Translations under genes and position numbers: made by a program
NCBI RefSeq assembly: GCF_000183545.2
Contig: NZ_JH976535.1
Span: 773,890-797,889 of the forward strand
Reading direction: 5' to 3'
From: Thermaerobacter subterraneus DSM 13965
Lineage (GTDB): Bacteria > Bacillota > Sulfobacillia > Thermaerobacterales > Thermaerobacteraceae
DNA length: 24,000 nt
Notes under the pieces: model-generated
The model's database searches: none
Told to the model about the DNA's origin: nothing
Seen by the model: the letters and a program-made list of their open reading frames with translations, nothing else
Shown: piece by piece, positions 162 to 14,771 of the stretch
Position numbering within the stretch: the stretch's first letter is position 1
Layout of the letters: every line of letters starts with the position of its first letter

Positions 162-593
162 GTGCACCGGACCACGGCGACGCTGGCGTCCCTGGTGGGC
201 ACGGTGGGTTCGACGGCGGTGCTCTACGGCGCCCTGTTCTGGTTGCCCCATCACCTGCAGGGGGCCCAACTCCATCCCACCGGGATCATCTTGCTCGGAT
301 CCCTGCTGGTGCTGCTCTTGCTGAGTTGGGCGCCGCTGGTCGCGCGCAGGGTGAAGCGCGGCGCCAGTGCCGCCGGGCTCCTCGGCTACGACCTGGCCTT
401 CGCGACCGGCACGGCGATCCTGGCAGTGCCCTTCCTGCTGTCGCCGTTGCGGCTGATCTTCCTGCTGCCCCTGGTGGCATGCCTGGTCCTGGTGGGTGCG
501 GAACGCATCAATACAGGCAACGTGGGGCGCCCGCTGTCGGACCCCCGGGGTTCTGCGTCCGACCCCACCGGACGGCCCGCGGGATCACGGTAG
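162..593 (+). CDS. hypothetical integral membrane protein
   Basis: GTG start with GGAGGGGG about 10 nt upstream. The 143-aa product has about four hydrophobic helices (GIILLGSLLVLLLLSW, LIFLLPLVACLVLVGA). No motif recognised. Confidence 0.5.
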   Translation: MHRTTATLASLVGTVGSTAVLYGALFWLPHHLQGAQLHPTGIILLGSLLVLLLLSWAPLVARRVKRGASAAGLLGYDLAFATGTAILAVPFLLSPLRLIFLLPLVACLVLVGAERINTGNVGRPLSDPRGSASDPTGRPAGSR

Positions 594-2204
594 CCGCGGC
601 CGCCGCTCGAACCACGGCGCCGCCCGCTCCAGCTGCCCCGCCAGGCGGAAGAGCCGGTCTTCCGCGCCGAAGGGGGCGACGAACTGGATCCCGATGGGCA
701 GGCCCTCCGGCGTCCAGTGAAGAGGCACGGACATGGCGGGCACCCCGGCCAGGTTGGCCAGCTGGGTGAAGGGCGTGGCCGCCAGGTTCTCCAGGGCCAC
801 CTGCTCGAGGATCCCCGCCGCCCGGTACACCCGCCCCGAGCCCAGGATGCCCAGGGCGTTGAGCAGGTTCATCAAACGCTCTTGGGCCGGAGAGGGCTTC
901 AGCTCCCCGACGGCCACCGGCGGCCGGGCGACCGTCGGCGTCATGTAGAGGTCCCACTGCTGGAAGAACCGGCCCAGGGCCCGGGCGGCCTGGTCCCACT
1001 GCTCCAGGGCCTGGCTGAACTCGCCGGCGCTGACCGTCTCCCCGAGGATCCCCAGCATCCGGGTGGCCGGCTCAAGGCGCTTCACCGCCTCGGGTCCGCG
1101 GAGTTCCCGCACCCGCCGGACCTCGGCCGCCACCGTGCCGCAGTACATGGTGAGGTAGCTGCGGGCCAGGGCAAGCCCGTCGATCTCCGGCCGGGCCTCC
1201 ACCACGTGGTGGCCGAGTTCCTCCAACAGGCGGGCCGCCCCCTCCACCGCCTTGACGCACTCGGGATCTACCGGCCGGTCGATGGGGGAGCGGGTGTCTA
1301 CGGCGATGCGCAGCGGCTCGGGGTCCTGGCCGAGTTCGTCCAGATAGGATCGGCGGGGCGGGGCGATGACGTAAGGCGCCCCGGGCTCGGGCGGGGCCAG
1401 CAGGTCCAAGATGGCGGCGCTGTCCCGGACCGACCGGGTGAGGACCCCGTACACCGCGGCGCCGTGCCACATCTGGCCGAAGTCGGGCCCCGTGGGGGTC
1501 CGCCCCCGGCTCGCCTTGAGGCCGAAGAGGCCGCAGTGGGAGGCCGGGATGCGCAGCGAGCCCCCGCCGTCGCCCCCCGAGGCCAGGGGGACCATGCCGG
1601 CCGCCACCGCCGCCGCGGAGCCCCCGCTGGACCCGCCAGGGGTCCGGGAGGGGTCCCAAGGGTTCCGGCACGGGCCGTACAGTTCGGGCTCGGTAAAGGC
1701 CACAAGGCCCAGTTCGGGCGTGTTGGTCTTGCCCAGGATGACGAGCCCGGCGGCCTTGTAGCGCCGGACCGTCTCGGCGTCGTGATCCGGGACGAACCCG
1801 GCATACGCCCGGGAGCCGTGGGTCAGGGGCACCCCGGCCAGGGCCTCGCCCAGGTCCTTGACCAGGAAGGGGACGCCGGTGAAGGGGCCAGGGGCGCCGG
1901 CGCCGGAAGCGCCAGCGGCCCCGCCGGGCGTGCCCTCATCCAGGGCCCGGGCCTGTTCCAGGGCCTGGTCGAACAGGGGGACGACCACGGCATTGAGCCG
2001 GGGGTTGAGCACCTCCACGCGCTCGATGGCCGCCTCGACCACCTCGACCGCCTTGACCTGCCGCGAGCGGATGAGTTCGGCCAGGCCGAGACCGTCGTAC
2101 CGGTCGTATTCCTTGAAACCCACGGCTCGGGTCCCCCGTTCTCCAGAGCGGACTGCGCCGGTCAGGGCAGAACATGCCGCCCCGTCGCCGGCCATGTTCG
2201 CCAT
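585..2204 (-). CDS. amidase-signature family amidase (GatA-like fold)
   Basis: Amidase signature GGSSGGSAAAVAAGMVPLASGGDGGGSLRIPAS, Lys in FLVKDL, GKTNTPE. Start is uncertain: ATG 2204/2195, or in-frame GTG 2123 (VGFKEYDRYDGLGLAELI...), which matches typical amidase N-termini. Confidence 0.85.
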   Translation of the reverse strand: MANMAGDGAACSALTGAVRSGERGTRAVGFKEYDRYDGLGLAELIRSRQVKAVEVVEAAIERVEVLNPRLNAVVVPLFDQALEQARALDEGTPGGAAGASGAGAPGPFTGVPFLVKDLGEALAGVPLTHGSRAYAGFVPDHDAETVRRYKAAGLVILGKTNTPELGLVAFTEPELYGPCRNPWDPSRTPGGSSGGSAAAVAAGMVPLASGGDGGGSLRIPASHCGLFGLKASRGRTPTGPDFGQMWHGAAVYGVLTRSVRDSAAILDLLAPPEPGAPYVIAPPRRSYLDELGQDPEPLRIAVDTRSPIDRPVDPECVKAVEGAARLLEELGHHVVEARPEIDGLALARSYLTMYCGTVAAEVRRVRELRGPEAVKRLEPATRMLGILGETVSAGEFSQALEQWDQAARALGRFFQQWDLYMTPTVARPPVAVGELKPSPAQERLMNLLNALGILGSGRVYRAAGILEQVALENLAATPFTQLANLAGVPAMSVPLHWTPEGLPIGIQFVAPFGAEDRLFRLAGQLERAAPWFERRPRLP

Positions 2205-6858: not shown

Positions 6859-7053
6859 GTGCTTGCCTGGCAGGTCGAGCGGCTGGGGCCGCCGCGGGAG
6901 GTCCTGCGCCTGACGGACGTGCCCGAACCGGTGGTGGAACCCGGCACGGTGAAGATCCGAGTGGAAGCGGCGGGCTTTGCCGGCGGCGGCATTCCCCAGG
7001 TGCCCGCCAACACGTACTGGTGAAGAACTACAGCGTGGTGGGGATTCACTGGG
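6859..7053 (+). pseudogene. NADPH:quinone oxidoreductase (MDR family) remnant with an internal deletion and a frameshift
   Basis: GTG 6859 follows GGTGAGG. The N-terminus LAWQVERLGPPREVLRLTDVPEPVVEPGTVKIRVEAAG is GroES-like. It runs straight into FAGGGIPQVPANTY, a C-terminal Rossmann-end motif, and stops at TGA 7021. After a 1-nt frame slip the sequence continues as VKNYSVVGIHWG. Confidence 0.55.
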
Positions 7054-7569
7054 GTTCATGCCATCGGCTACTATGCCACGGCCCTGCTGGCCACCCGGGC
7101 CGGAGCCAGCTTCCCCGTGGCTCTGCTGGGTGTCGCCGGGGTCACCGGGACCGTGAGGTATGTCATGGGACTGCCGGCCCTGCGCCTCCACGGCCATTAC
7201 CTGGCCCTGGCCAGCATCAGCTTCGGCGCGGCGGTGCCGGAGATCATCCTGCAGTGGGACACGCTGACGGGTGGCCATGCCGGGGTCCTAGTGCCGCGGC
7301 CCGCCTTGGGTCCTCGGGAGCTGGCCGGCGATCGGCAGGTGTACTACCTGGCCTGGGGCGCCGCCTTCGTGCTGATGGCCGTGGCCGGCAACCTGCTCCG
7401 CACCCGGCCGGGGCGGGCCCTGATGGTCCTGCGGGAAAGCGACGTGCTGGCCCAGTCCCTGGGCATCAACCTGGTGACTTGCAAGACCCTGGCCTTCACC
7501 CTGAGCGCCGTCTACGCCGGGATCGCCGGGGGCCTTTACGCCTAACTGGTGGGCTTCATCAGCCGTTAC
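7054..7569 (+). pseudogene. livM: branched-chain amino acid ABC permease LivM, 5'-truncated fragment with a premature TAA, interrupted by an IS
   Basis: ...AIGYYATALLAT...GLPALRLHGHYLALASISFG...LTGGHAG...RPGRALMVLRESDVLAQSLGINLVTCKTLAFTLSAVYAGIAGGLYA is LivM-like. TAA at 7543-7545 sits where LivM proteins have His/Tyr. The frame continues LVGFISRY up to the IS junction. About the first 100 codons are absent. Confidence 0.75.
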
Positions 7570-8527
7570 CTGAAACATCGTCATCTGTTTCAGGCAGCCG
7601 ATCCTTGCGGATCGGCGGTGCCGGTCTTACCCGGCGATGCGCCGGTGCCGGTTTCCCGCTTCCTCCGGGATCGCCTGCCTTGCGGCAGGTCTTCCATCCC
7701 GTCCACGGGCGTTTTCCGTCTCCGGACCACTCCCGGCGACGGCGGCCGCCAGGGCCGCGAGATTCCGGGCCGCGTTTTCGTCCCGATCCAGCACGAGCCC
7801 GCATTCCTCACAGCGGAAAACACGCTGCGAAAGCGGCAGCGACGGCTTGATCGCGCCGCACCGGGAGCAACGCTTGCTACTGGGATAGAAGCGCGGCGCT
7901 TCGACCAGGACCGCCCCGTGCCAGGCGCACTTGTATTGGAGCTGGCGGCGGATCTCCGCCATGGCCGCATCGGCCAGCGCCCGGGCGAGCCGGCGGTTCT
8001 GGACCATGCCCGCCACGTGCAGCTGTTCGACCACCACCACGCCATAGGTGGTCGCCAGGTGGTGCGTCAGCTTGTGAAGGGCGTCCTGGCGGATATTCCG
8101 GACCCGCGCATGGAGCCGGGCCAGCCGGCGGCGGGCCTTTTGCCACCCCCGGCTGCCCTTCTGGCGGCGGGCCAGGGCGCGGCTGGACCGGGCGACCTTC
8201 TGGAGGGCTTTTTCAAGGGGCCGCGGGTTCGGCCACACCTCGCCCGTCGAAAGGACCGCCAGGTGCCGCACCCCCGCGTCCACGCCCACCACCCGCCAGG
8301 GGAACCGGGGGCAGCCCGGCTGCCGCTCCACCTCGCAGGTGAAGCTGATGAACCACCGGCCGCCTTCCCGCGACACCGTGGCCGAGAGGATCCGGGCCGT
8401 CCCCGCCTGGATGCGCCGGAGCAGGGCCGTGGTCGGCTCGTGGGTCTTCACCCGCCCGATCCGGGGCAGGACGACGTGGCTTTGGTCGTCCACCCGGATC
8501 GCGCCGGTGGTGAACCGCACCGACTCC
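7563..8527 (-). repeat. direct repeat copy 1 (IS right end plus 3' two-thirds of tnpB)
   Basis: Aligns by hand to 12963-13917 at roughly nine-tenths identity in the stretches compared. The length difference of 10 nt is fully explained by a 9-nt hairpin-loop insertion here plus a 1-nt deletion in copy 2. Confidence 0.8.
7564..7740 (-). ncRNA. candidate TnpB omega-RNA (reRNA) scaffold, copy 1 (5' limit approximate)
   Basis: Four stem-loops lie between the tnpB 3' end and the element tip: 7569-7594, 7597-7616, 7631-7645 and 7674-7689. All are conserved in position in copy 2. The location overlaps the tnpB stop at 7627-7629, as in characterised TnpB systems. Confidence 0.4.
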
Positions 8528-8652
8528 AGCTCCCGCACCACGGCGGGGAACCAGCGGTGGGGCGGTCGGGTCGAACCGGGCCTCCGGCGGCCGGTACGGC
8601 GCGGGGCGGCACGGCGCGCCGGCCCTTGGGAGGCTGCTGGCCGACCCGTCAA
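7627..8652 (-). CDS. tnpB: RNA-guided endonuclease TnpB (IS605 OrfB family), 5'-truncated copy with an uninterrupted ORF
   Basis: RuvC-I VVGVDAGV, RuvC-II VVVVEQL, Zn-ribbon CSRCG...FRCEECG, RuvC-III DRDENAARN. It lacks the N-terminal LQAYRFALDPTP...FNWGL segment seen in copy 2. The TTG start at 8652 overlaps the TGA of the upstream 211-aa gene (TTGA). Confidence 0.8.
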   Translation of the reverse strand: MTGRPAASQGPARRAAPRRTGRRRPGSTRPPHRWFPAVVRELESVRFTTGAIRVDDQSHVVLPRIGRVKTHEPTTALLRRIQAGTARILSATVSREGGRWFISFTCEVERQPGCPRFPWRVVGVDAGVRHLAVLSTGEVWPNPRPLEKALQKVARSSRALARRQKGSRGWQKARRRLARLHARVRNIRQDALHKLTHHLATTYGVVVVEQLHVAGMVQNRRLARALADAAMAEIRRQLQYKCAWHGAVLVEAPRFYPSSKRCSRCGAIKPSLPLSQRVFRCEECGLVLDRDENAARNLAALAAAVAGSGPETENARGRDGRPAARQAIPEEAGNRHRRIAG

Positions 8653-9284
8653 AGGCGGGTGTGGACGTACCCCCGGGTTTCAAGCCAGTGGCCCACGGCA
8701 AAAAGGCCAACGGCGAGGACGCCCACAGCGGGTACCTTGCCCAGGTCACTCCAGCGATCGTACAGGCCGAGCTGAAAGATGCTCACGGGCAGGTTGGGCG
8801 CGGTCAACATGAAACCCACACAATACGTTACGTTGAAAAGTAGAGGGAGAAAAGTGTTTCGAACCACAAGGGCAAGGCAATAGGCTGCCGCGATGAGAGC
8901 CGCACTCTGGACGGCGACGGCGATAAAGAGCAGCCACAGGCGCCCAAAACGCGTCGAGAGATACAGGAACGAGACGGCGCACAAGGCGACGAACAGGACC
9001 CAACAGATGATCATCCTGGCGAAGAGGGCACTCCGGCGGCCGGCGTAGACGAGCAGCAGTTCCCGAGCCGGCGAGTCCACGTATTCCCGCAGGATCAGCA
9101 GGGGCCACCAGGGAGCGAAGACGGGAATCAACAACTGGCATACCGTCGCAACGATGCTTGGATCCTGACCTTCCGCGGTCGCCGCGAGCACGGTCAGAGG
9201 CGTCAACCCCACCACGATGGCGGGCGGCACCAGGCCGTAAAGGCCAAGATTCTTCATTTCGAGGTAAAAGGCCCGACTCAGCAT
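8649..9284 (-). CDS. six-TM membrane protein, probable ABC-2/BcrB-like permease component
   Basis: 211 aa with about six hydrophobic helices. ATG 9284 overlaps the ATPase stop (ATGCTGA), implying translational coupling. Confidence 0.7.
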   Translation of the reverse strand: MLSRAFYLEMKNLGLYGLVPPAIVVGLTPLTVLAATAEGQDPSIVATVCQLLIPVFAPWWPLLILREYVDSPARELLLVYAGRRSALFARMIICWVLFVALCAVSFLYLSTRFGRLWLLFIAVAVQSAALIAAAYCLALVVRNTFLPLLFNVTYCVGFMLTAPNLPVSIFQLGLYDRWSDLGKVPAVGVLAVGLFAVGHWLETRGYVHTRL

Positions 9285-10126
9285 AGCCCATGGATCAGCC
9301 CCATGTAGGCGTCCTCCAGTGTCGGCGCAACGGCGGGGAACCGCTGAGGCTGCCGTGTGACGACGCGGTGCTGCACGCGACCCGAGACCTCGGTGATTCG
9401 CACGGTGAAGTGAGGCCCGGCGATGTCCTGCGCATTCTCCGCATCGACCTGGTAGACCTTCCCCTCCGCCAGGCGGCGCAGTTCCTCGCAGCTGCCCTGG
9501 AACAGAACCTGTCCCCGGTCTAGGATGATGACCCTGTCACAACAGGCATCGACATCCTCCACCAGATGCGTCGAGAGGAGAATCGCCCGGCCTTGTTTAA
9601 TCGTGTTGACCAGGTTCTTGAACCGGGTCCGTTCGGCCGGGTCCAGACCCGCCGTCGGTTCGTCGAAGAGCAACAACCGGGGGCTACCCAGCAGGGCCTG
9701 GGCTATCCCGGCCCGCCGGATCATGCCGACCGACAGCGCCTTGACCCGATCGCCAGCCCGATCCGCCAGATTCACCGCTTCAAGCACCCTCTCGATTTCA
9801 CCGGCCAGCTGTTGCCGGGGTATGCCCTTCAGGGAACCTACGTAAGCCATCATCTCGTACAGGGTGAGTTCACGAAACATGCCATAGGTTTGGGGAAGAT
9901 ATCCCATTTCCTGATAGAACACCTTCGACTTTTCGATGGGCACGCCCTGGTAAAGCACCTGGCCCTGGTCGGGATGAATCAGGCCCACCATGCAGCGAAG
10001 CAAGGTCGTCTTCCCCGCGCCGTTCGGGCCTAACAGGCCGTAGACGCCCGCCTCCAGCCGGAGAGAGATGTTCTTCAGCACCTGTCGCCGTCCGAAACGC
10101 TTGCTCACCTGGTTGATCGCCATCAT
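9278..10126 (-). CDS. ABC transporter ATP-binding protein (ABC-2/exporter type)
   Basis: Walker A GPNGAGKTT, Q-loop LPQ, signature variant LSVGMIRR, Walker B LLLFDEPTAGLD, H-loop STH. The start overlaps the stop of the upstream gene (ATGA). Confidence 0.9.
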   Translation of the reverse strand: MMAINQVSKRFGRRQVLKNISLRLEAGVYGLLGPNGAGKTTLLRCMVGLIHPDQGQVLYQGVPIEKSKVFYQEMGYLPQTYGMFRELTLYEMMAYVGSLKGIPRQQLAGEIERVLEAVNLADRAGDRVKALSVGMIRRAGIAQALLGSPRLLLFDEPTAGLDPAERTRFKNLVNTIKQGRAILLSTHLVEDVDACCDRVIILDRGQVLFQGSCEELRRLAEGKVYQVDAENAQDIAGPHFTVRITEVSGRVQHRVVTRQPQRFPAVAPTLEDAYMGLIHGLC

Positions 10127-12204
10127 TCCCCGAGTTCCTCCCTCAAGGCCCGCTCGATGAAGTCAAGGGGTTCCCCACCTTCGCCGGAGGTCAGATGATC
10201 ATAAAACCTGCGACGGTGCTTCGTCTTTTGCGGCGATTCCAAAAACAGATAACGAGCTGCCTGGTCCAGGACCGTCGCCGCCAGCTCTTCCTGGCGCATG
10301 GACTCGGCGCTAGGGCCGGATTCTGTAGATGAAGCCGACTGCTGGCGCAGTCGCCGAACTTCCTGGATGTCAGACAAGATTTTGGCCGGGTCCAACCTTG
10401 CAGACGGATCGACCGGGGCACCCTCTGGGATCCCAACAAGGTAATCTACGTATTGGCTCACAAACCTAAAGTTTTCTGCAGACACTCCCGCTTGAAACTG
10501 GGTCATGATGATGCTACGGGCCAGTTCGGCGCCACTGCCGCATGATTGGGCCGTCACATGGTCGCTCATGATCACGACATCTTCCGTATTTGAATTGAGG
10601 CCAAAACTCCGCGGTACCTGAAAGAACTTCTTCTCAGAAAAACCCCGGATCAATGCCGGCATCGGCTGCTCAAGTTCCGTATAGACGCGGTCCAGGATAT
10701 GTTCGGCCCGGCGCAAGCACTCACGGGTAGGCCGGTCGTTGCGCGTGGGTTCTGCGTAGATTCCGTTCTCCACCTCGTCGTCAAGCCCAGCGAACAGCGA
10801 AAGGCCATTCGTACGACCGGCGAAGACGTTGTCGTGGCCGTCCAGATTCGAAAAGACCTTAAGGTTCGACCGCACTTTAACCGTGTATTCGCTTTCGTTA
10901 GATGACAAGTTGATCACGTATCCGTACCGGTCGGAGTCCCAGATCTTGAGTCGACCGGGTTTCGGGTAGTACGCAAAATACCCCGGCAGGGTGATGGCCT
11001 GGGCATTCGCATAGTATTTCGGTGACTTCCCATGGTACCGAAACGTGACGGTCCTCGCTCCAGCGAGTGGGCCCACGGTGACGTAGTCCCCATCGCGGAT
11101 AAAACGCACTTTGCCAGTTTCCGTGTGCACGTCCGTGATAATGTATCCGTGGTAAAGGGTGAAATCGTACCGGTCAAGATCAGGGTTGTCAAGGGTCACC
11201 CTGACCTCGGCACGCAACTCGTTGCTGATTGTGAACTTCATGTCATACGCCTCCACCTGAAATCCGGGCTCCAGTCGCTGGGAGTCTGGTTCGTCCTGCC
11301 CCATGTAGTAGATTGGATCCGCGTACGGAAACGACTGCATCCGCCGGTCCATCGCCAGGGTCGACCCGCGGTAGGAGAACAAAACGACGGCAACAGATGC
11401 CGTCACAATGGTTGCGGCGAGCAAGACATTCTTAACTTGACGACTACGGGCCGCGGTGTAACCGATTAAGGCGAGGGAAAAGACCATCCAAAAGAGAGCC
11501 AGACCCCACCGAACTGGTTCCAGTGGAAATCCATAGATGTCGGGAACGGCAAAGGCGTTGCCGATCTCATGGGGTACCAGGCGTACAAAGTCCTTAATGG
11601 AATAAAGCAGATTCTCGGTCCATGACGATCCAAAAAGAAGAAGGGGGATTCGGAAAGGAACCTCGGTGAACGTCGTGTTGAGAAGGATCAGGCCAACGGT
11701 TAGGCCATAAACCGCAAGCCGCCTCCCCCCGAAGACGGATCCAAACACGATACCGAGCAACCCGGCAATGAGAAAGGATAGCCATGAATACAGTATGCAT
11801 GTTTTAATGAGATGTATGAGCACTGGGTCGAAGTCCAAACCCGAAAGGGCATAAAACAATGCGCTCAACATTAGATAGAGGACGAAAGGAATTGTCGAGA
11901 TAACCAACAGACACCCGACGAGGCCAGCATACACCCTGGCTAGACCATACTTTGTCGTTTTGAAGGATTCGTCCAATGAGTGGTCGCGAAGGGTACGAGC
12001 CAGGTTATAAAAACAATAGATGAACAACGCCACAATAAAAATGTTAGGCTGGAAAACGGACTCTAACGCAGGGAATAGAGCTCGATGGCGCAAAAAGATT
12101 CGGAGATGATATCCCCAGTAGAGCGCCAGTGCTAGATGTGTAGTAATGAACAGGATGCTTCGATCTCTGGCACGCCAGAATATTCGAAACAAAGGAACAA
12201 TCAT
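10123..12204 (-). CDS. 693-aa polytopic membrane protein (permease-like, about 8 TM) fused to a ~400-aa soluble beta-rich plus helical domain
   Basis: GGAGG (12215-12219 on the minus strand) lies 10 nt upstream of ATG 12204. Residues 1-285 are hydrophobic helices. Residues 290-693 are hydrophilic (FQVEAYDMKFTISNELRAEVRVTLDNPDLDRYDFTLYHGYIITDV...). AT-richer codon usage than the host genes. Confidence 0.85.
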   Translation of the reverse strand: MIVPLFRIFWRARDRSILFITTHLALALYWGYHLRIFLRHRALFPALESVFQPNIFIVALFIYCFYNLARTLRDHSLDESFKTTKYGLARVYAGLVGCLLVISTIPFVLYLMLSALFYALSGLDFDPVLIHLIKTCILYSWLSFLIAGLLGIVFGSVFGGRRLAVYGLTVGLILLNTTFTEVPFRIPLLLFGSSWTENLLYSIKDFVRLVPHEIGNAFAVPDIYGFPLEPVRWGLALFWMVFSLALIGYTAARSRQVKNVLLAATIVTASVAVVLFSYRGSTLAMDRRMQSFPYADPIYYMGQDEPDSQRLEPGFQVEAYDMKFTISNELRAEVRVTLDNPDLDRYDFTLYHGYIITDVHTETGKVRFIRDGDYVTVGPLAGARTVTFRYHGKSPKYYANAQAITLPGYFAYYPKPGRLKIWDSDRYGYVINLSSNESEYTVKVRSNLKVFSNLDGHDNVFAGRTNGLSLFAGLDDEVENGIYAEPTRNDRPTRECLRRAEHILDRVYTELEQPMPALIRGFSEKKFFQVPRSFGLNSNTEDVVIMSDHVTAQSCGSGAELARSIIMTQFQAGVSAENFRFVSQYVDYLVGIPEGAPVDPSARLDPAKILSDIQEVRRLRQQSASSTESGPSAESMRQEELAATVLDQAARYLFLESPQKTKHRRRFYDHLTSGEGGEPLDFIERALREELGE

Positions 12205-12219
12205 GGATGCAAGGCCTCC

Positions 12220-12255
12220 AAAACCATAAACAGGGGCCCATACCCCTGTTTATGG
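12220..12255 (-). terminator. intrinsic terminator/attenuator hairpin between the small secreted-protein gene and the ABC genes
   Basis: On the minus strand: CCATAAACAGGGG-tatggg-CCCCTGTTTATGG (13-bp perfect stem, 6-nt loop) followed by TTTT, then the GGAGG of the next gene. Confidence 0.55.
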
Positions 12256-12280
12256 TGAGTCATTGTTAATTTAAAAGCAA

Positions 12281-12667
12281 CTAGTTCGACACTGTTCCCC
12301 TACCGATGCAATCGCTGTACCAATACATGCAATTCAGTTGAACACGCCACAGGAGGGCACCAGAACGCGAAGAACTTCCGTAGGCACCTGACCCGATGGC
12401 CATCAGCGACGTGCGTTCAGTCTGCCAACCTGTACCATCAGAGTACTGTAGGTCGATATACAACGGATGTCCGGAGGAAGAATAGTTGTAACCATCGTAT
12501 GATGCGCCGTAATTCGATGTAATCGCTGACGACCGCACACTGGTTTGTCCTGTGCTGATGTATACGGTCACTGAAGCAGCAAAGACAGTAACGGTAAGCG
12601 CTATAACGAAGATGAACGTCAACAGCAAGGCTACCGGCCTGACCCGCACGGAGAACAACGCTCTCAT
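12281..12667 (-). CDS. small secreted Ser/Gly/Tyr-rich protein (candidate secreted toxin/bacteriocin-like factor), family unknown
   Basis: GGAGGTG lies 6 nt upstream of ATG 12667. Sec-type signal: MRALFSVRVR, hydrophobic core, VFA|AS. The ~97-aa mature part has no Lys and a single Cys pair, CMYWYSDC. It is the first gene of the cassette. Confidence 0.7.
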   Translation of the reverse strand: MRALFSVRVRPVALLLTFIFVIALTVTVFAASVTVYISTGQTSVRSSAITSNYGASYDGYNYSSSGHPLYIDLQYSDGTGWQTERTSLMAIGSGAYGSSSRSGALLWRVQLNCMYWYSDCIGRGTVSN

Positions 12668-12692
12668 GCACCACCTCCGGGGTGTTAATGTG

Positions 12693-12956
12693 CTACCACT
12701 GGATAATTTCGGCAGGAAGGCTCCGTTTCCTTCTTAGAGAGGTCACTGGTGGCTCCCTTTCGCGTTGGATGTGACGGCTCGAAGCGAGGACGTGTACTGC
12801 TGACTGCTGGATGCAGGATGAGCGCACCTCCAGCCAGCCGCCGGGCCGCGATGGATGCCGTTCGTGGGCGGCGAGGGCGGCCAGCACGTCGTCCACCTCG
12901 CGGATGCACTGGGCCACCCCTCCGCAGGTTGCGCACGTGTAGGTGAACTCCGCCAC
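12693..12956 (-). CDS. hypothetical small ORF (possibly only an N-terminal remnant of the gene that flanked IS copy 2)
   Basis: GTG 12956 lies 7 nt from the IS right end. The N-terminus AEFTYTCATCGGVAQCIREVDDVLAALAAHERH is high-GC and protein-like. The C-terminal half runs into lower-GC promoter-region DNA and looks non-coding. Confidence 0.25.
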   Translation of the reverse strand: MAEFTYTCATCGGVAQCIREVDDVLAALAAHERHPSRPGGWLEVRSSCIQQSAVHVLASSRHIQREREPPVTSLRRKRSLPAEIIQW

Positions 12957-12962
12957 GCCGTA

Positions 12963-13917
12963 CCGTTACCTGAAACTGTTTCAGGCAGCCGATCCTCACG
13001 GATCGACGGTGCCGGTCTTACCCGGCCATGAGCCGGTGCCGGCTTTCCGTTTCCTCCGGGACCGCCTGCCGGGCGGCAGATCTTCCGCCCCGTCTACGGG
13101 CGTTTCACGTCTCCGGGCCACTCCCGGCGACGGCGGCCACCAAGGCCGCGAGATTCCGGGCCGCGTTTTCGTCCCGATCCAGCACGAGCCCGCATTCCTC
13201 ACAGCGGAAGGTGCGTTCCGAAAGTGGGAGCGATGCTTTCACCACCCCGCACCGGGAGCACCGCTTGCTGCTCGGGTAAAAGGGCGGTGCTTCGACCAGG
13301 ACCGCCCCGTGCCAGGGACACTTATACCTGAGCTGGCGGCGGATCTCCGCCAGGGCGGCATCGGCCAGCACCCGGGCCAGCCGCCGGTTCTTCATCATGC
13401 CCGCCGCATTCAGCTGTTCGACGACCACCACGCCGTAGGTGCTCGCGAGGTGGTGTGTCAGCTTGTGAAGGGCATCCTGGCGGAGATTCCGGGCTCGCGC
13501 ATGGATCTGGGCCAGCCGGCGGCGGGCCTTTTGCCACCCCCGGCTGCCCTTCTGGCGGCGGGCCAGGGCGCGGCTGGACCGGGCCAGCCGTTTTAAGTTC
13601 ATCTCCAGCGCTCGGGCATTGGGCAAGACCTCCCCGGTGGAGAGCACCGCCAGGTGCTTGACGCCCGCATCGACGCCGACGACCTTCCAGGGGAACCGGG
13701 GCCGGCCCGGCGGCCGCTCCACCTCACAGGTGAAGCTGACGAACCACCGGCCCCTTCCCGTGACACCGTGGCGGACAGGATGCGGGCCGTTCCCGCTTCG
13801 ATGCGCCGGAGCAGGGCCGTGGTGGGCTCGTGGGTCTTCACCCGCCCGATCCGGGGCAGGACGACGTGGCTTTGGTCGTCTACCCGGATCGCGCCGGTGG
13901 TGAACCGCACCGACTCC
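12963..13917 (-). repeat. direct repeat copy 2 (IS right end plus 3' two-thirds of tnpB)
   Basis: Partner of 7563-8527. High similarity stops abruptly after ...GTGGTGAACCGCACCGACTCC in both copies. Confidence 0.8.
12964..13135 (-). ncRNA. candidate TnpB omega-RNA (reRNA) scaffold, copy 2 (5' limit approximate)
   Basis: Stem-loops at 12969-12985, about 12989-13006, 13022-13036 and 13066-13079 match copy 1 in position, with different loop sequences. Confidence 0.4.
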
Positions 13918-14305
13918 CGCCCCCGGCCCTTCTTCCGGAGCCGGGGAAACCCCACCCGGCGCCCCTTGCGTTTACCCTGTCGGCTTTTGGACCCGTTCTG
14001 CAGGGCCCGGGCGAGCCCGTCCAGACCGGAGGAGTAGGCTTCCTTCGAGTTCTCCCGCCACCAGGGGGCGACGCGGTGCTTTTGCCGGTTCCACTCCCGC
14101 CGCAGGGCGGGGAGGGTCCACGGCACCTCGACGTCTTCACCCGGGCGTGGGCTTCCAGGCGCTCCTTCACCAGGGCCAAACCCCAGTTGAAGGCGAAGCG
14201 GCGGGCGCCCACGTGGGAGGCCAGCGCCCGTTCCTGGCGGGGTGTGGGGTCGAGTGCGAAGCGGTACGCCTGCAACACACGCACGGGCAGGCCCCCCAAA
14301 ATCAT
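13018..14305 (-). pseudogene. tnpB: tnpB (RNA-guided endonuclease TnpB), full length but with two frameshifts and a premature TGA
   Basis: The N-terminal frame (14305 down) reads VRVLQAYRFALDPTPRQERALASHVGARRFAFNWGLALVKERLEAH. The frame slips near 14140 (CCCGGG run) into ...GEDVEVPWTLPALRREWNRQKH...SATVSREG. A 1-nt deletion near 13745 relative to copy 1 shifts into ...PRFPWKVVGVDAGV...CEECGLVLDRDENAARN. TGA at 13105-13107 replaces the GAA of copy 1. The ancestral TAA is at 13018-13020. Confidence 0.8.
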
Positions 14306-14313
14306 CCAGGGCC

Positions 14314-14342
14314 AGCATACCAGAACGTATGTTCGATTTCAA
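14314..14342 (-). promoter_or_regulatory. sigma-A-like promoter in the IS left end driving tnpB
   Basis: On the minus strand: TTGAAA (14342-14337), a 17-nt spacer, then TATGCT (14319-14314). The -10 ends only 8 nt before ATG 14305, so the mRNA would be leaderless or start at the downstream GTG. Confidence 0.3.
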
Positions 14343-14387
14343 AGAGCGGCAGACGGGCGGAGGGGAGGGGATGCGAAAATTTGATGA

Positions 14388-14771
14388 CGTTACTTCAACC
14401 TGACCTCGTCCATCGCCCTGGTGGCCCTGCTGCAGGTATTCACCCGGATGCCGGGCTGGCTGTCCGTGGTCGAGGGCGCCATCATCGTCCTCTTTGCCAT
14501 GTTCCTTCCCGGCGGGCTGGCGTCGCTGCCGGCCCGCTGGCGGACCTGGCGGGCCTGGGGACATGTCCTGCCGGCCGGGGCCGGCCTCCCGCGGCCGTCC
14601 CCTGCCACGGCGGCGGAGGCGGCCGCCGGCTCCCCCGCCGCCGGGGAGCCGGGTCACGGAACCCGCCCGGCCGGACCCACCGGCCGGTCGACCTGGACCG
14701 GTGGGGACGAACCAGCCCCCCGCCTGGCCGGCCCGGAAGGAGGGAGCCCCGATGTCCCTCCTCGCCGTTGA
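14388..14771 (+). pseudogene. livM: LivM 3' fragment (continuation of the livM interrupted at 7569)
   Basis: RYFNLTSSIALVALLQVFTRMPGWLSVVEGAIIVLFAMFLPGGLASL is a LivM C-terminal-like sequence. It is in frame with the 7054-7569 fragment once the insertion is removed. A low-complexity tail overlaps the livG start. Confidence 0.7.

Follow-up and report, generated by a model that had tools for sequence, protein, structure and literature searches.

A mobile four-gene cassette of Thermaerobacter subterraneus joins a small secreted protein to an ABC-2-like transporter: a possible toxin and self-protection module

Background

Secreted antagonists that leave the cell by the Sec pathway, paired with self-protection by an ATP-binding cassette (ABC) system, are already known as a kind of system. 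Among them, lactococcin 972 (Lcn972), a protein of 66 aa with antimicrobial activity through lipid II binding, is the one with which we compare a four-gene cassette of Thermaerobacter subterraneus DSM 13965, located in a stretch of 24,000 nucleotides (contig NZ_JH976535.1, positions 773,890 to 797,889) that was analyzed as a whole and is referred to as the window. In the lactococcin 972 locus, lcn972-orf2-orf3, the gene of the Sec-type bacteriocin is followed by putative ABC immunity genes, and a failure to clone lcn972 is reported as well (PMC4055356). The lactococcin-972-like scbABC locus is under quorum-sensing control via ComE and ComR binding sites, and 27.5% of pneumococcal genomes keep scbBC only (PMC11796350).

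The T. subterraneus cassette shares several features with these loci. A small, beta-rich protein with a Sec signal peptide is encoded first, a large membrane protein and a putative immunity ATPase follow, no modification enzymes are found among the cassette genes (Pfam/NCBIfam), and some genomes retain the transporter genes alone. It departs from them in the mature small protein, which has about 97 aa and is predicted to form a nine-strand jelly-roll, and in the transporter, which has two ABC-2-type permease subunits, one of them with an external domain predicted to resemble an M1 peptidase. The Lactococcin_972 model gave no match at E <= 0.1 among 70 members of the small-protein family, nor did any other Pfam family above its cut-off. 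Since the defining models are unmatched and the transporter differs in type and architecture, we place the cassette outside the lactococcin 972 family.

By analogy with lactococcin 972 loci, we tentatively read the cassette as a mobile module of antagonism and self-protection, in which a Sec-secreted protein toxin is combined with ABC immunity. This reading is drawn from the one-sided linkage of the small gene to the transporter genes, the repeated loss of the small gene while the transporter is retained and stays under selection, a conserved hairpin behind the small gene, a payload slot that appears to be variable, and the mobility of the module, which is met in units bounded by insertion sequences (IS), on plasmids and at three sites in three congeners. 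The ~97-aa jelly-roll protein would leave the cell by the general Sec pathway, and the stem-loop would stop or stabilize most transcripts, so that the secreted protein would be made in excess over the downstream machine. That machine would be an ABC-2-type transporter, assembled from the 693-aa and 211-aa permeases with an ATPase dimer, and the catalytically dead, peptidase-shaped external domain of the 693-aa permease would contact and recognize the secreted protein, or would recognize its envelope target, at the cell surface; ATP hydrolysis would then remove or neutralize the recognized partner, leaving the producer protected. Cells losing the first gene would retain the transporter as orphan immunity.

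Results and discussion

One-sided linkage of the small gene to the transporter genes

The initial annotation had described four co-directional genes on the minus strand, and the four open reading frames (ORFs) lie where it had placed them (Table 1). Both of the gene overlaps that it had noticed were also recovered, one of 4 nt (ATGA) between the 693-aa and ATPase genes and one of 7 nt (ATGCTGA) between the ATPase and 211-aa genes, an arrangement shared with translationally coupled operons of ABC-2 exporters. Ribosome-binding sites of the form GGAGG precede the small gene and the 693-aa gene.

Synteny was counted over 56 modules in 49 genome loci. The ATPase gene lies downstream of the 693-aa gene in 47 of the 56 and a homologue of the 211-aa gene is in the expected place in 36. 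The small gene is present in 22 modules and absent from the other 34, and four-gene synteny is found in many genomes. Matches to the small-protein family in the same 49 loci adjoin a 693-aa gene in 23 of 24 cases (22 directly upstream, one directly downstream). When loci were looked up from the small gene, six were obtained, five of them with usable downstream DNA, and a 693-aa homologue stood directly downstream in 5/5. The linkage is one-sided, in that the small gene hardly ever occurs apart from the transporter, which itself is often alone.

The 693-aa protein has a 100% identical match in a T. subterraneus protein. About 60 close relatives (38-54% identity) occur in Syntrophomonadaceae, Peptococcaceae, Desulfoscipio, Contubernalis and their kin. 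More distant ones (25-39%) were found in gut and rumen Clostridia by an alignment-based scan of genome contigs; a single-sequence scan gave none of these, and a second, word-indexed homologue search with the profile yielded nothing beyond the first. Plasmids of Clostridium botulinum group III carry the module without the small gene, and no phage record carrying the 693-aa protein was found. A three-gene module, 44% identical, was also seen outside Bacillota in a metagenome-assembled genome labelled Candidatus Sumerlaeota (L009), a case of either inter-phylum transfer or binning error.

On the Geobacillus conjugative plasmid pGeo12b, a gene for a 127-aa signal-peptide protein, a 16-bp hairpin, three ABC genes and an extracytoplasmic function (ECF) sigma/anti-sigma pair lie between IS256 and IS982. 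In this plasmid (L063, 4359-4742) and in a Eubacterium locus (L034, 1917-2306), the slot upstream of the 693-aa homologue is occupied by signal-peptide proteins of 127-129 aa that the small-family profile missed, which suggests either that the slot holds an exchangeable payload or that the small family has diverged to an extreme degree.

Loss of the small gene in other Thermaerobacter species

The three ABC genes were found at another site in T. marianensis, beside a transposase remnant, and at a third site in T. litoralis. In T. marianensis (L001, 7840-8000) a leader of ~70 nt is kept, and the small gene (by a clean deletion) and the hairpin are absent. What remains in T. litoralis (L060, 7864-8000) is the final 60 nt of the small gene (~20 codons), together with a hairpin that is mutated and decayed. 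Because of this remnant and of the T. marianensis leader, we regard the four-gene form as ancestral in Thermaerobacter, the small gene having been lost twice. The ABC genes are intact in both species, with ratios of nonsynonymous to synonymous divergence (dN/dS) of 0.14-0.3, the 211-aa gene giving 0.6 on few substitutions; judged by these ratios, the three genes are under purifying selection in the two species that have lost the small gene.

Homology to T. marianensis is ungapped from 12224 to 8538, identity being 75-92% over 1.35 kb at the 5' side and 96-100% beyond it. Because identity splits in this way, the cassette is a recombinant mosaic, as the initial annotation had suspected from composition. 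The switch is sharp and falls at ~10870, within the 693-aa gene; synonymous divergence (dS) from T. marianensis is 0.54 upstream of that point and 0.05 downstream, a pattern that indicates allelic recombination inside the gene.

Base composition is clearly atypical and graded from 5' to 3'. GC content is 0.517 in the small gene, 0.535 in the 693-aa gene (rising from 0.517 in its 5' part to 0.568 in its 3' part), 0.620 in the ATPase gene and 0.608 in the 211-aa gene, as against 0.72-0.73 in the flanks. The low GC content reported earlier relative to the flanks was thus borne out; the figure of 47-48% given for 10.1-12.7 kb was too low and too uniform, the measured range being 0.46-0.60. The proposal that the cassette is foreign and mobile is supported by its position in an IS-bounded unit inside livM and by its occurrence at three chromosomal sites in three Thermaerobacter species.

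A conserved hairpin behind the small gene

Between the small gene and the 693-aa gene, the 13-bp stem recognized earlier proved to be the core of a 15-pair hairpin, followed by UUUU that runs into the GGAGG ribosome-binding site of the 693-aa gene. It folds at -31.1 kcal/mol (z = -4.6), better than every one of 200 shuffled sequences. A strong hairpin occupies this position in 19/20 genome loci and 5/5 loci reached from the small gene (24/25 altogether), with 10-19 pairs and a sequence that varies from locus to locus. The layout originally pointed out, in which a structural gene, a hairpin and ABC genes follow one another, is conserved over divergent loci. No riboswitch or known RNA was found upstream of the small gene.

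A predicted jelly-roll protein with its own Sec signal

An N-terminal hydrophobic helix followed by an A-A site fits the Sec signal peptide previously assigned to the 128-aa protein; it covers approximately aa 1-30/31 and leaves a mature part of ~97 aa. The AlphaFold2 (AF2) model, at a mean predicted local distance difference test (pLDDT) of 91.8, consists of a helix (aa 11-23) and nine strands arranged as a jelly-roll. An exhaustive profile search gathered a family of 81 clusters with proteins of 112-154 aa, in which the signal helix and A-A site are conserved together with N61, S65, W107, L111, N112, C120 (the single Cys) and G124. The exact sequence of the window protein was found in a protein collection solely from Logan assemblies, a 99%-identical relative being present in an NCBI record, and the public T. 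subterraneus genome may carry the gene without annotation.

The small protein matched no housekeeping family: Pfam and NCBIfam gave no match for it, and members of its family gave none above curated cut-offs, with scattered weak matches of single members only. Profile searches of PDB sequences with the small and 693-aa families likewise gave no match. Structural neighbors, at TM-scores of ~0.5, include PirA, the YPM superantigen, the Tk-SP jelly-roll domain, Ena subunits and carbohydrate-binding module (CBM) family CBM6, and CBM36 modules and the lysozyme inhibitor PliG are also among the fold matches; a viral structure library returned generic jelly-rolls only. No lipobox or anchor was found in the protein, nor an N-terminal connector, a sortase signal or a wall-binding repeat.

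Dedicated export of the small protein by the ABC genes, as first proposed, is not sustained. Because every family member carries its own Sec-type signal, the ABC system is unlikely to be its exporter, and the ABC-2-like transporter has none of the features of peptidase-containing exporters.

A transporter with a predicted peptidase-like external domain

That the 211-aa and 693-aa proteins span the membrane several times, as originally described, is supported by hydropathy and, for the larger one, by its AF2 model (pLDDT 84.7). The latter shows an amphipathic N-terminal helix, a core of six transmembrane segments (TM1-TM6) in which TM5 and TM6 are separated by short helices, then a seventh segment (TM7) and a C-terminal domain of ~400 aa. 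In an analysis of loop charges the short loop before TM7 is basic, and the C-terminal domain is for this reason placed outside the cell.

The top 50 Foldseek matches of the 693-aa model were all M1 peptidases (E ~1e-8, ~390-485 aligned columns), at TM-scores of 0.25-0.42 (TMq 0.27) and root-mean-square deviations of ~10-13 Å. The apparent likeness to M1 aminopeptidases (PepN, ERAP, IRAP, LTA4H and the two-domain M1 enzyme of Deinococcus radiodurans) lies in the beta-saddle and the thermolysin-like architecture; unlike them, the domain has neither catalytic motifs nor sequence or profile similarity, and it is fused to a transporter. Neither the HEXXH-(18)-E zinc site nor the GXMEN motif occurs in the window protein or in any of 95 homologues. 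No Pfam (including Peptidase_M1) or NCBIfam model matched the 693-aa family above its curated cut-off when all aligned members were scanned, which gave scattered weak single-member matches; hhalign of the family profile against Escherichia coli PepN gave no signal (probability 0.04). The domain is accordingly modeled as M1-like in shape and appears to be catalytically dead, and an active peptidase role was rejected for want of the catalytic motifs. A literature search for fusions of ABC permeases with M1 peptidases found no paper.

The ATPase matches ABC_tran (E 3.5e-30, Pfam) and has a Walker A motif GPNGAGKT, a Walker B motif LLLFDE and an H-loop histidine (H187). Its best NCBIfam matches are DrrA, GldA and PQQ-ADH ABC models, all below cut-off: 184.6 bits against a cut-off of 312.45 for DrrA, with 156.8 against 309.75 for the LanFEG model TIGR03740 and 107.7 against 254.85 for the Lcn972-group ABC model TIGR03608. 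No BcrA or BcrB model was among its top NCBIfam matches. A search of the window proteins with PADLOC returned generic P-loop matches for the ATPase and nothing for the small protein or the 693-aa protein. Among the membrane proteins, the 211-aa one matches ABC2_membrane_3 weakly (E 0.0057, 16.2 bits against a Pfam cut-off of 31.6), and we read it as a second ABC-2-like permease subunit; the 693-aa one matches no ABC2_membrane model, its ABC-2-like core being seen in the AF2 model.

Among known systems, the transporter comes close to exporters and immunity pumps of the DrrAB/LanFEG/BcrAB type, with which it shares an ATPase nearest to the DrrA, GldA and lantibiotic-protection subfamilies and a small partner with six transmembrane segments; the resemblance to BcrAB is one of subunit size alone. 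It differs from them in that its ABC genes reach no curated cut-off, including those of characterized nutrient or drug transporters, and in that the 693-aa subunit adds TM7 and the ~400-aa external domain. We know of no such additions in systems of this type.

Weighing the interpretations

Several results weigh against our tentative reading of the cassette as a toxin with ABC self-protection. The predicted jelly-roll matches are generic (top TM-score ~0.5). The faster evolution of the small protein that an arms race would produce was looked for and not found, its rate being similar to those of the permeases (median pairwise identity 0.36 for the small, 0.31 for the 693-aa and 0.28 for the 211-aa protein). 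Neither a regulator nor a recognizable promoter was found in the window. Loci that carry the small gene show no significant enrichment of quorum-sensing neighbors (8/20 versus 4/22, p = 0.17). Finally, the ATPase signature (aa 131-135), LSGGM in 37 of 42 related ATPases, is LSVGM in Thermaerobacter, a substitution that might weaken activity there. In favor of the toxin and self-protection reading, besides the evidence from which it was drawn, the Sec signal conserved through the family makes secretion of the small protein independent of the ABC system, the loss of the small gene alone has its parallel in the scbBC-only pneumococcal genomes, and the regulators found next to modules are of kinds that stand beside bacteriocin and resistance loci.

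The main rival, which we consider rather unlikely, is that the genes encode an ABC-2 exporter for resistance to, or detoxification of, an external compound, the small protein being an optional extracellular partner, LanI-like or inhibitor-like, that adapts or sequesters, either by binding that compound or by attaching to the external domain. It would account readily for transporters that stand alone in 34/56 modules and stay under purifying selection without the small gene, for neighboring ECF sigma/anti-sigma and PadR genes, which are typical of envelope-stress resistance genes, for the similar and correlated evolutionary rates of the small and 693-aa proteins (Spearman 0.61), and for the presence of PliG among the fold matches. 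It is less comfortable with a small protein that, having no lipobox or anchor, would diffuse away, with a conserved hairpin that favors surplus small protein, which would be odd if that protein were an accessory subunit, with a small gene that is lost repeatedly from loci where the pump stays, and with a slot that can be filled by apparently unrelated secreted proteins.

That the small protein is instead a surface, matrix or carbohydrate-binding structural protein (Ena-, TasA- or CBM-like), with the ABC-2 machine exporting or anchoring a glycopolymer or assembly factor that it needs, seems quite unlikely to us. Ena spore-appendage subunits and CBM6/CBM36 do appear among its fold matches, an arrangement for high expression would suit a structural product, and ABC-2 exporters handle wall polymers in other systems; yet the protein has neither an N-terminal connector nor a sortase signal or wall-binding repeat, no glycosyltransferase or polymer-synthesis genes recur near the modules, and transporter modules persist under selection without the small gene.

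We give still less credence to the cassette being inert cargo on a dead IS-derived unit, with no current function in T. subterraneus. Both TnpB copies of that unit are defective, no promoter consensus or regulator was found, and the ATPase signature is atypical, but the four ORFs are intact and have good ribosome-binding sites, dN/dS is below 0.3 across congeners, and the hairpin, still intact in T. subterraneus, has decayed in T. litoralis, a species without the small gene.

Least probable of these is a signal or pro-signal that the peptidase-like external domain would process to feed neighboring Agr/LytTR circuits: Agr-type parts do lie beside 12/42 modules, and in one locus (L048) an AgrD-like gene and a LytTR-type direct repeat are found just upstream of the small gene, but HEXXH and GXMEN are missing from 95/95 homologues, which makes proteolysis unlikely, Agr-type loci already encode their own AgrD-like peptides, and most loci, including the window, have no such regulators. 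The signalling role that the initial annotation had named as an option finds no support.

A broader proposal, which we regard as doubtful, is that Clostridia harbor a widespread and so far unrecognized class of Sec-secreted jelly-roll toxins, of which the cassette would be the founding example, with ABC-2 immunity transporters whose dead M1-like ectodomain serves as toxin receptor, and that the Thermaerobacter copy is cargo of a TnpB-derived transposon with one left and two right ends. Such a class may range from human-gut Eubacterium and Lachnospiraceae to thermophiles, with the C. botulinum group III plasmids counted in it. The libraries and literature searched contain no description of either protein family, of a pseudo-peptidase ectodomain carried by an ABC-2 permease, or of this conserved hairpin arrangement. 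If the small protein is antimicrobial, it would represent a new family of protein bacteriocins, of ~80 clusters and with no curated model, and the transporter an ABC immunity machine of a new type, distinguished by its pseudo-peptidase ectodomain, both being found in gut and environmental Clostridia and on plasmids; two families now called hypothetical would gain names, and a compact four-gene system would be at hand in thermostable versions. Should the toxin reading fail, the strictly one-way linkage and the conservation of the hairpin still mark out a functional module that is absent from current databases.

A TnpB-bounded unit inside livM

The TnpB elements on both sides of the cassette and the interruption of livM had gone unremarked in the initial annotation. 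The unit comprises 6.8 kb (7565-14388), of which 4.4 kb is cargo, and it has a single left end and two right ends. Its two TnpB copies are in direct orientation and 79-94% identical over their common part, and the domains matched are OrfB_IS605, Cas12f1-like_TNB and HTH_OrfB_IS605, with guided_TnpB at 236.8 bits (cut-off 100). GTAAC, in the orientation of the element, stands 5' of the left end, and both right ends finish with it. The unit resembles TnpB elements of the IS200/IS605-IS607 type in these domains, in the Transposase-2 RNA at the right ends and in the GTAAC sequences; it differs in having one left and two right ends around cargo, in both tnpB genes being defective and in the lack of TnpA, no tnpA gene or TnpA protein having been found within 7-15 kb.

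Joining the two livM parts extends the BPD_transp_2 match from profile position 198 to 217, and since the match crosses the rejoined junction, the unit is an insertion in this housekeeping gene. Since livM also has an in-frame TAA at 7543-7545, seven codons ahead of the point of insertion, it is doubly inactivated. The unit may have arisen by transposition of the segment between the left end and the second right end, or else by recombination, aided by homology, into a resident IS; it offers a concrete case of how TnpB-type elements might acquire cargo. Its neighbors are spore germination genes, liv ATPase genes, an acyl-CoA dehydrogenase gene and other core genes.

Table 1. Features of the cassette and of the unit that carries it (window coordinates)
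Feature	Position	Strand	Basis and remarks
Small secreted protein gene, 128 aa	12281-12667	-	ORF call
Intergenic stem-loop, 15 pairs, 4-nt loop	12223-12256	-	Folding; attenuator or terminator-like
693-aa permease gene	10123-12204	-	ORF call
ABC-2-like six-TM core and TM7 of 693-aa protein	aa 1-279, nt 11368-12204	-	AF2 model
Extracytoplasmic domain of 693-aa protein, M1-aminopeptidase-like fold	aa ~295-693	-	AF2 model, Foldseek, loop charges
ABC ATPase gene, 282 aa	9278-10126	-	ORF call; ATGA overlap with 693-aa gene
211-aa multi-TM protein gene	8649-9284	-	ORF call; ATGCTGA overlap with ATPase gene
Cassette 3' tail, 111 nt, 83% GC	8538-8648	-	Common to T. marianensis and T. litoralis; cassette homology stops there
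Upstream leader, possible promoter region	12745-12815	-	~75-80% identical (by eye) to sequence 5' of T. marianensis cassette
87-aa ORF with CxxC motif	12693-12956	-	Between right end of TnpB copy 2 and cassette leader; no family match
TnpB copy 2, both ends present, tnpB frameshifted	12965-14388	-	Pfam/NCBIfam; one-base gap relative to copy 1
TnpB copy 1, 5'-truncated, right end kept	7565-8537	-	Pfam/NCBIfam
Transposase-2 RNA (RF03015) motifs	12984-13053 (copy 2), 7593-7662 (copy 1)		At right ends; 76 and 68.8 bits
livM 5' part	7024-7564	+	BPD_transp_2 profile positions 32-198
livM 3' part	14394-14771	+	Followed by livG-like and livF-like ATPase genes

Flanking sequences and neighboring regulators

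The 3' tail is kept in all three Thermaerobacter cassettes and marks the exact 3' edge of the mobile segment. On the other side, no sigma-70 consensus site was found in the upstream leader, and the region around the 87-aa ORF has 64% GC and is not common to T. marianensis.

Regulators beside the modules vary by locus and comprise AgrB with AgrD-like peptides (YQPK), LytTR regulators with AgrC-type kinases, ECF sigma/anti-sigma pairs and PadR. ORFs for AgrD-like propeptides with the common YQPK motif occur ~260 nt upstream of the small gene in L048 and at 12235-12370 in the Peptococcaceae locus L003 (SCADC1_2_3); in L048 a perfect 12-nt direct repeat with 21-nt spacing, similar to a LytTR box, lies 5' of the AgrD-like ORF and the small gene. 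L003 also holds a tandem duplicate of the series 693-aa gene, ATPase gene, 213-aa gene, AgrB and response regulator, the small gene standing directly upstream of the second duplicate only; on the upstream side there is also a LytTR regulator, as well as another ABC system of a different kind that begins with a secreted protein of 135 aa. In L028 and L034 the small gene is preceded by a conserved 21-aa ORF (MYQNK...) with a hairpin behind it.

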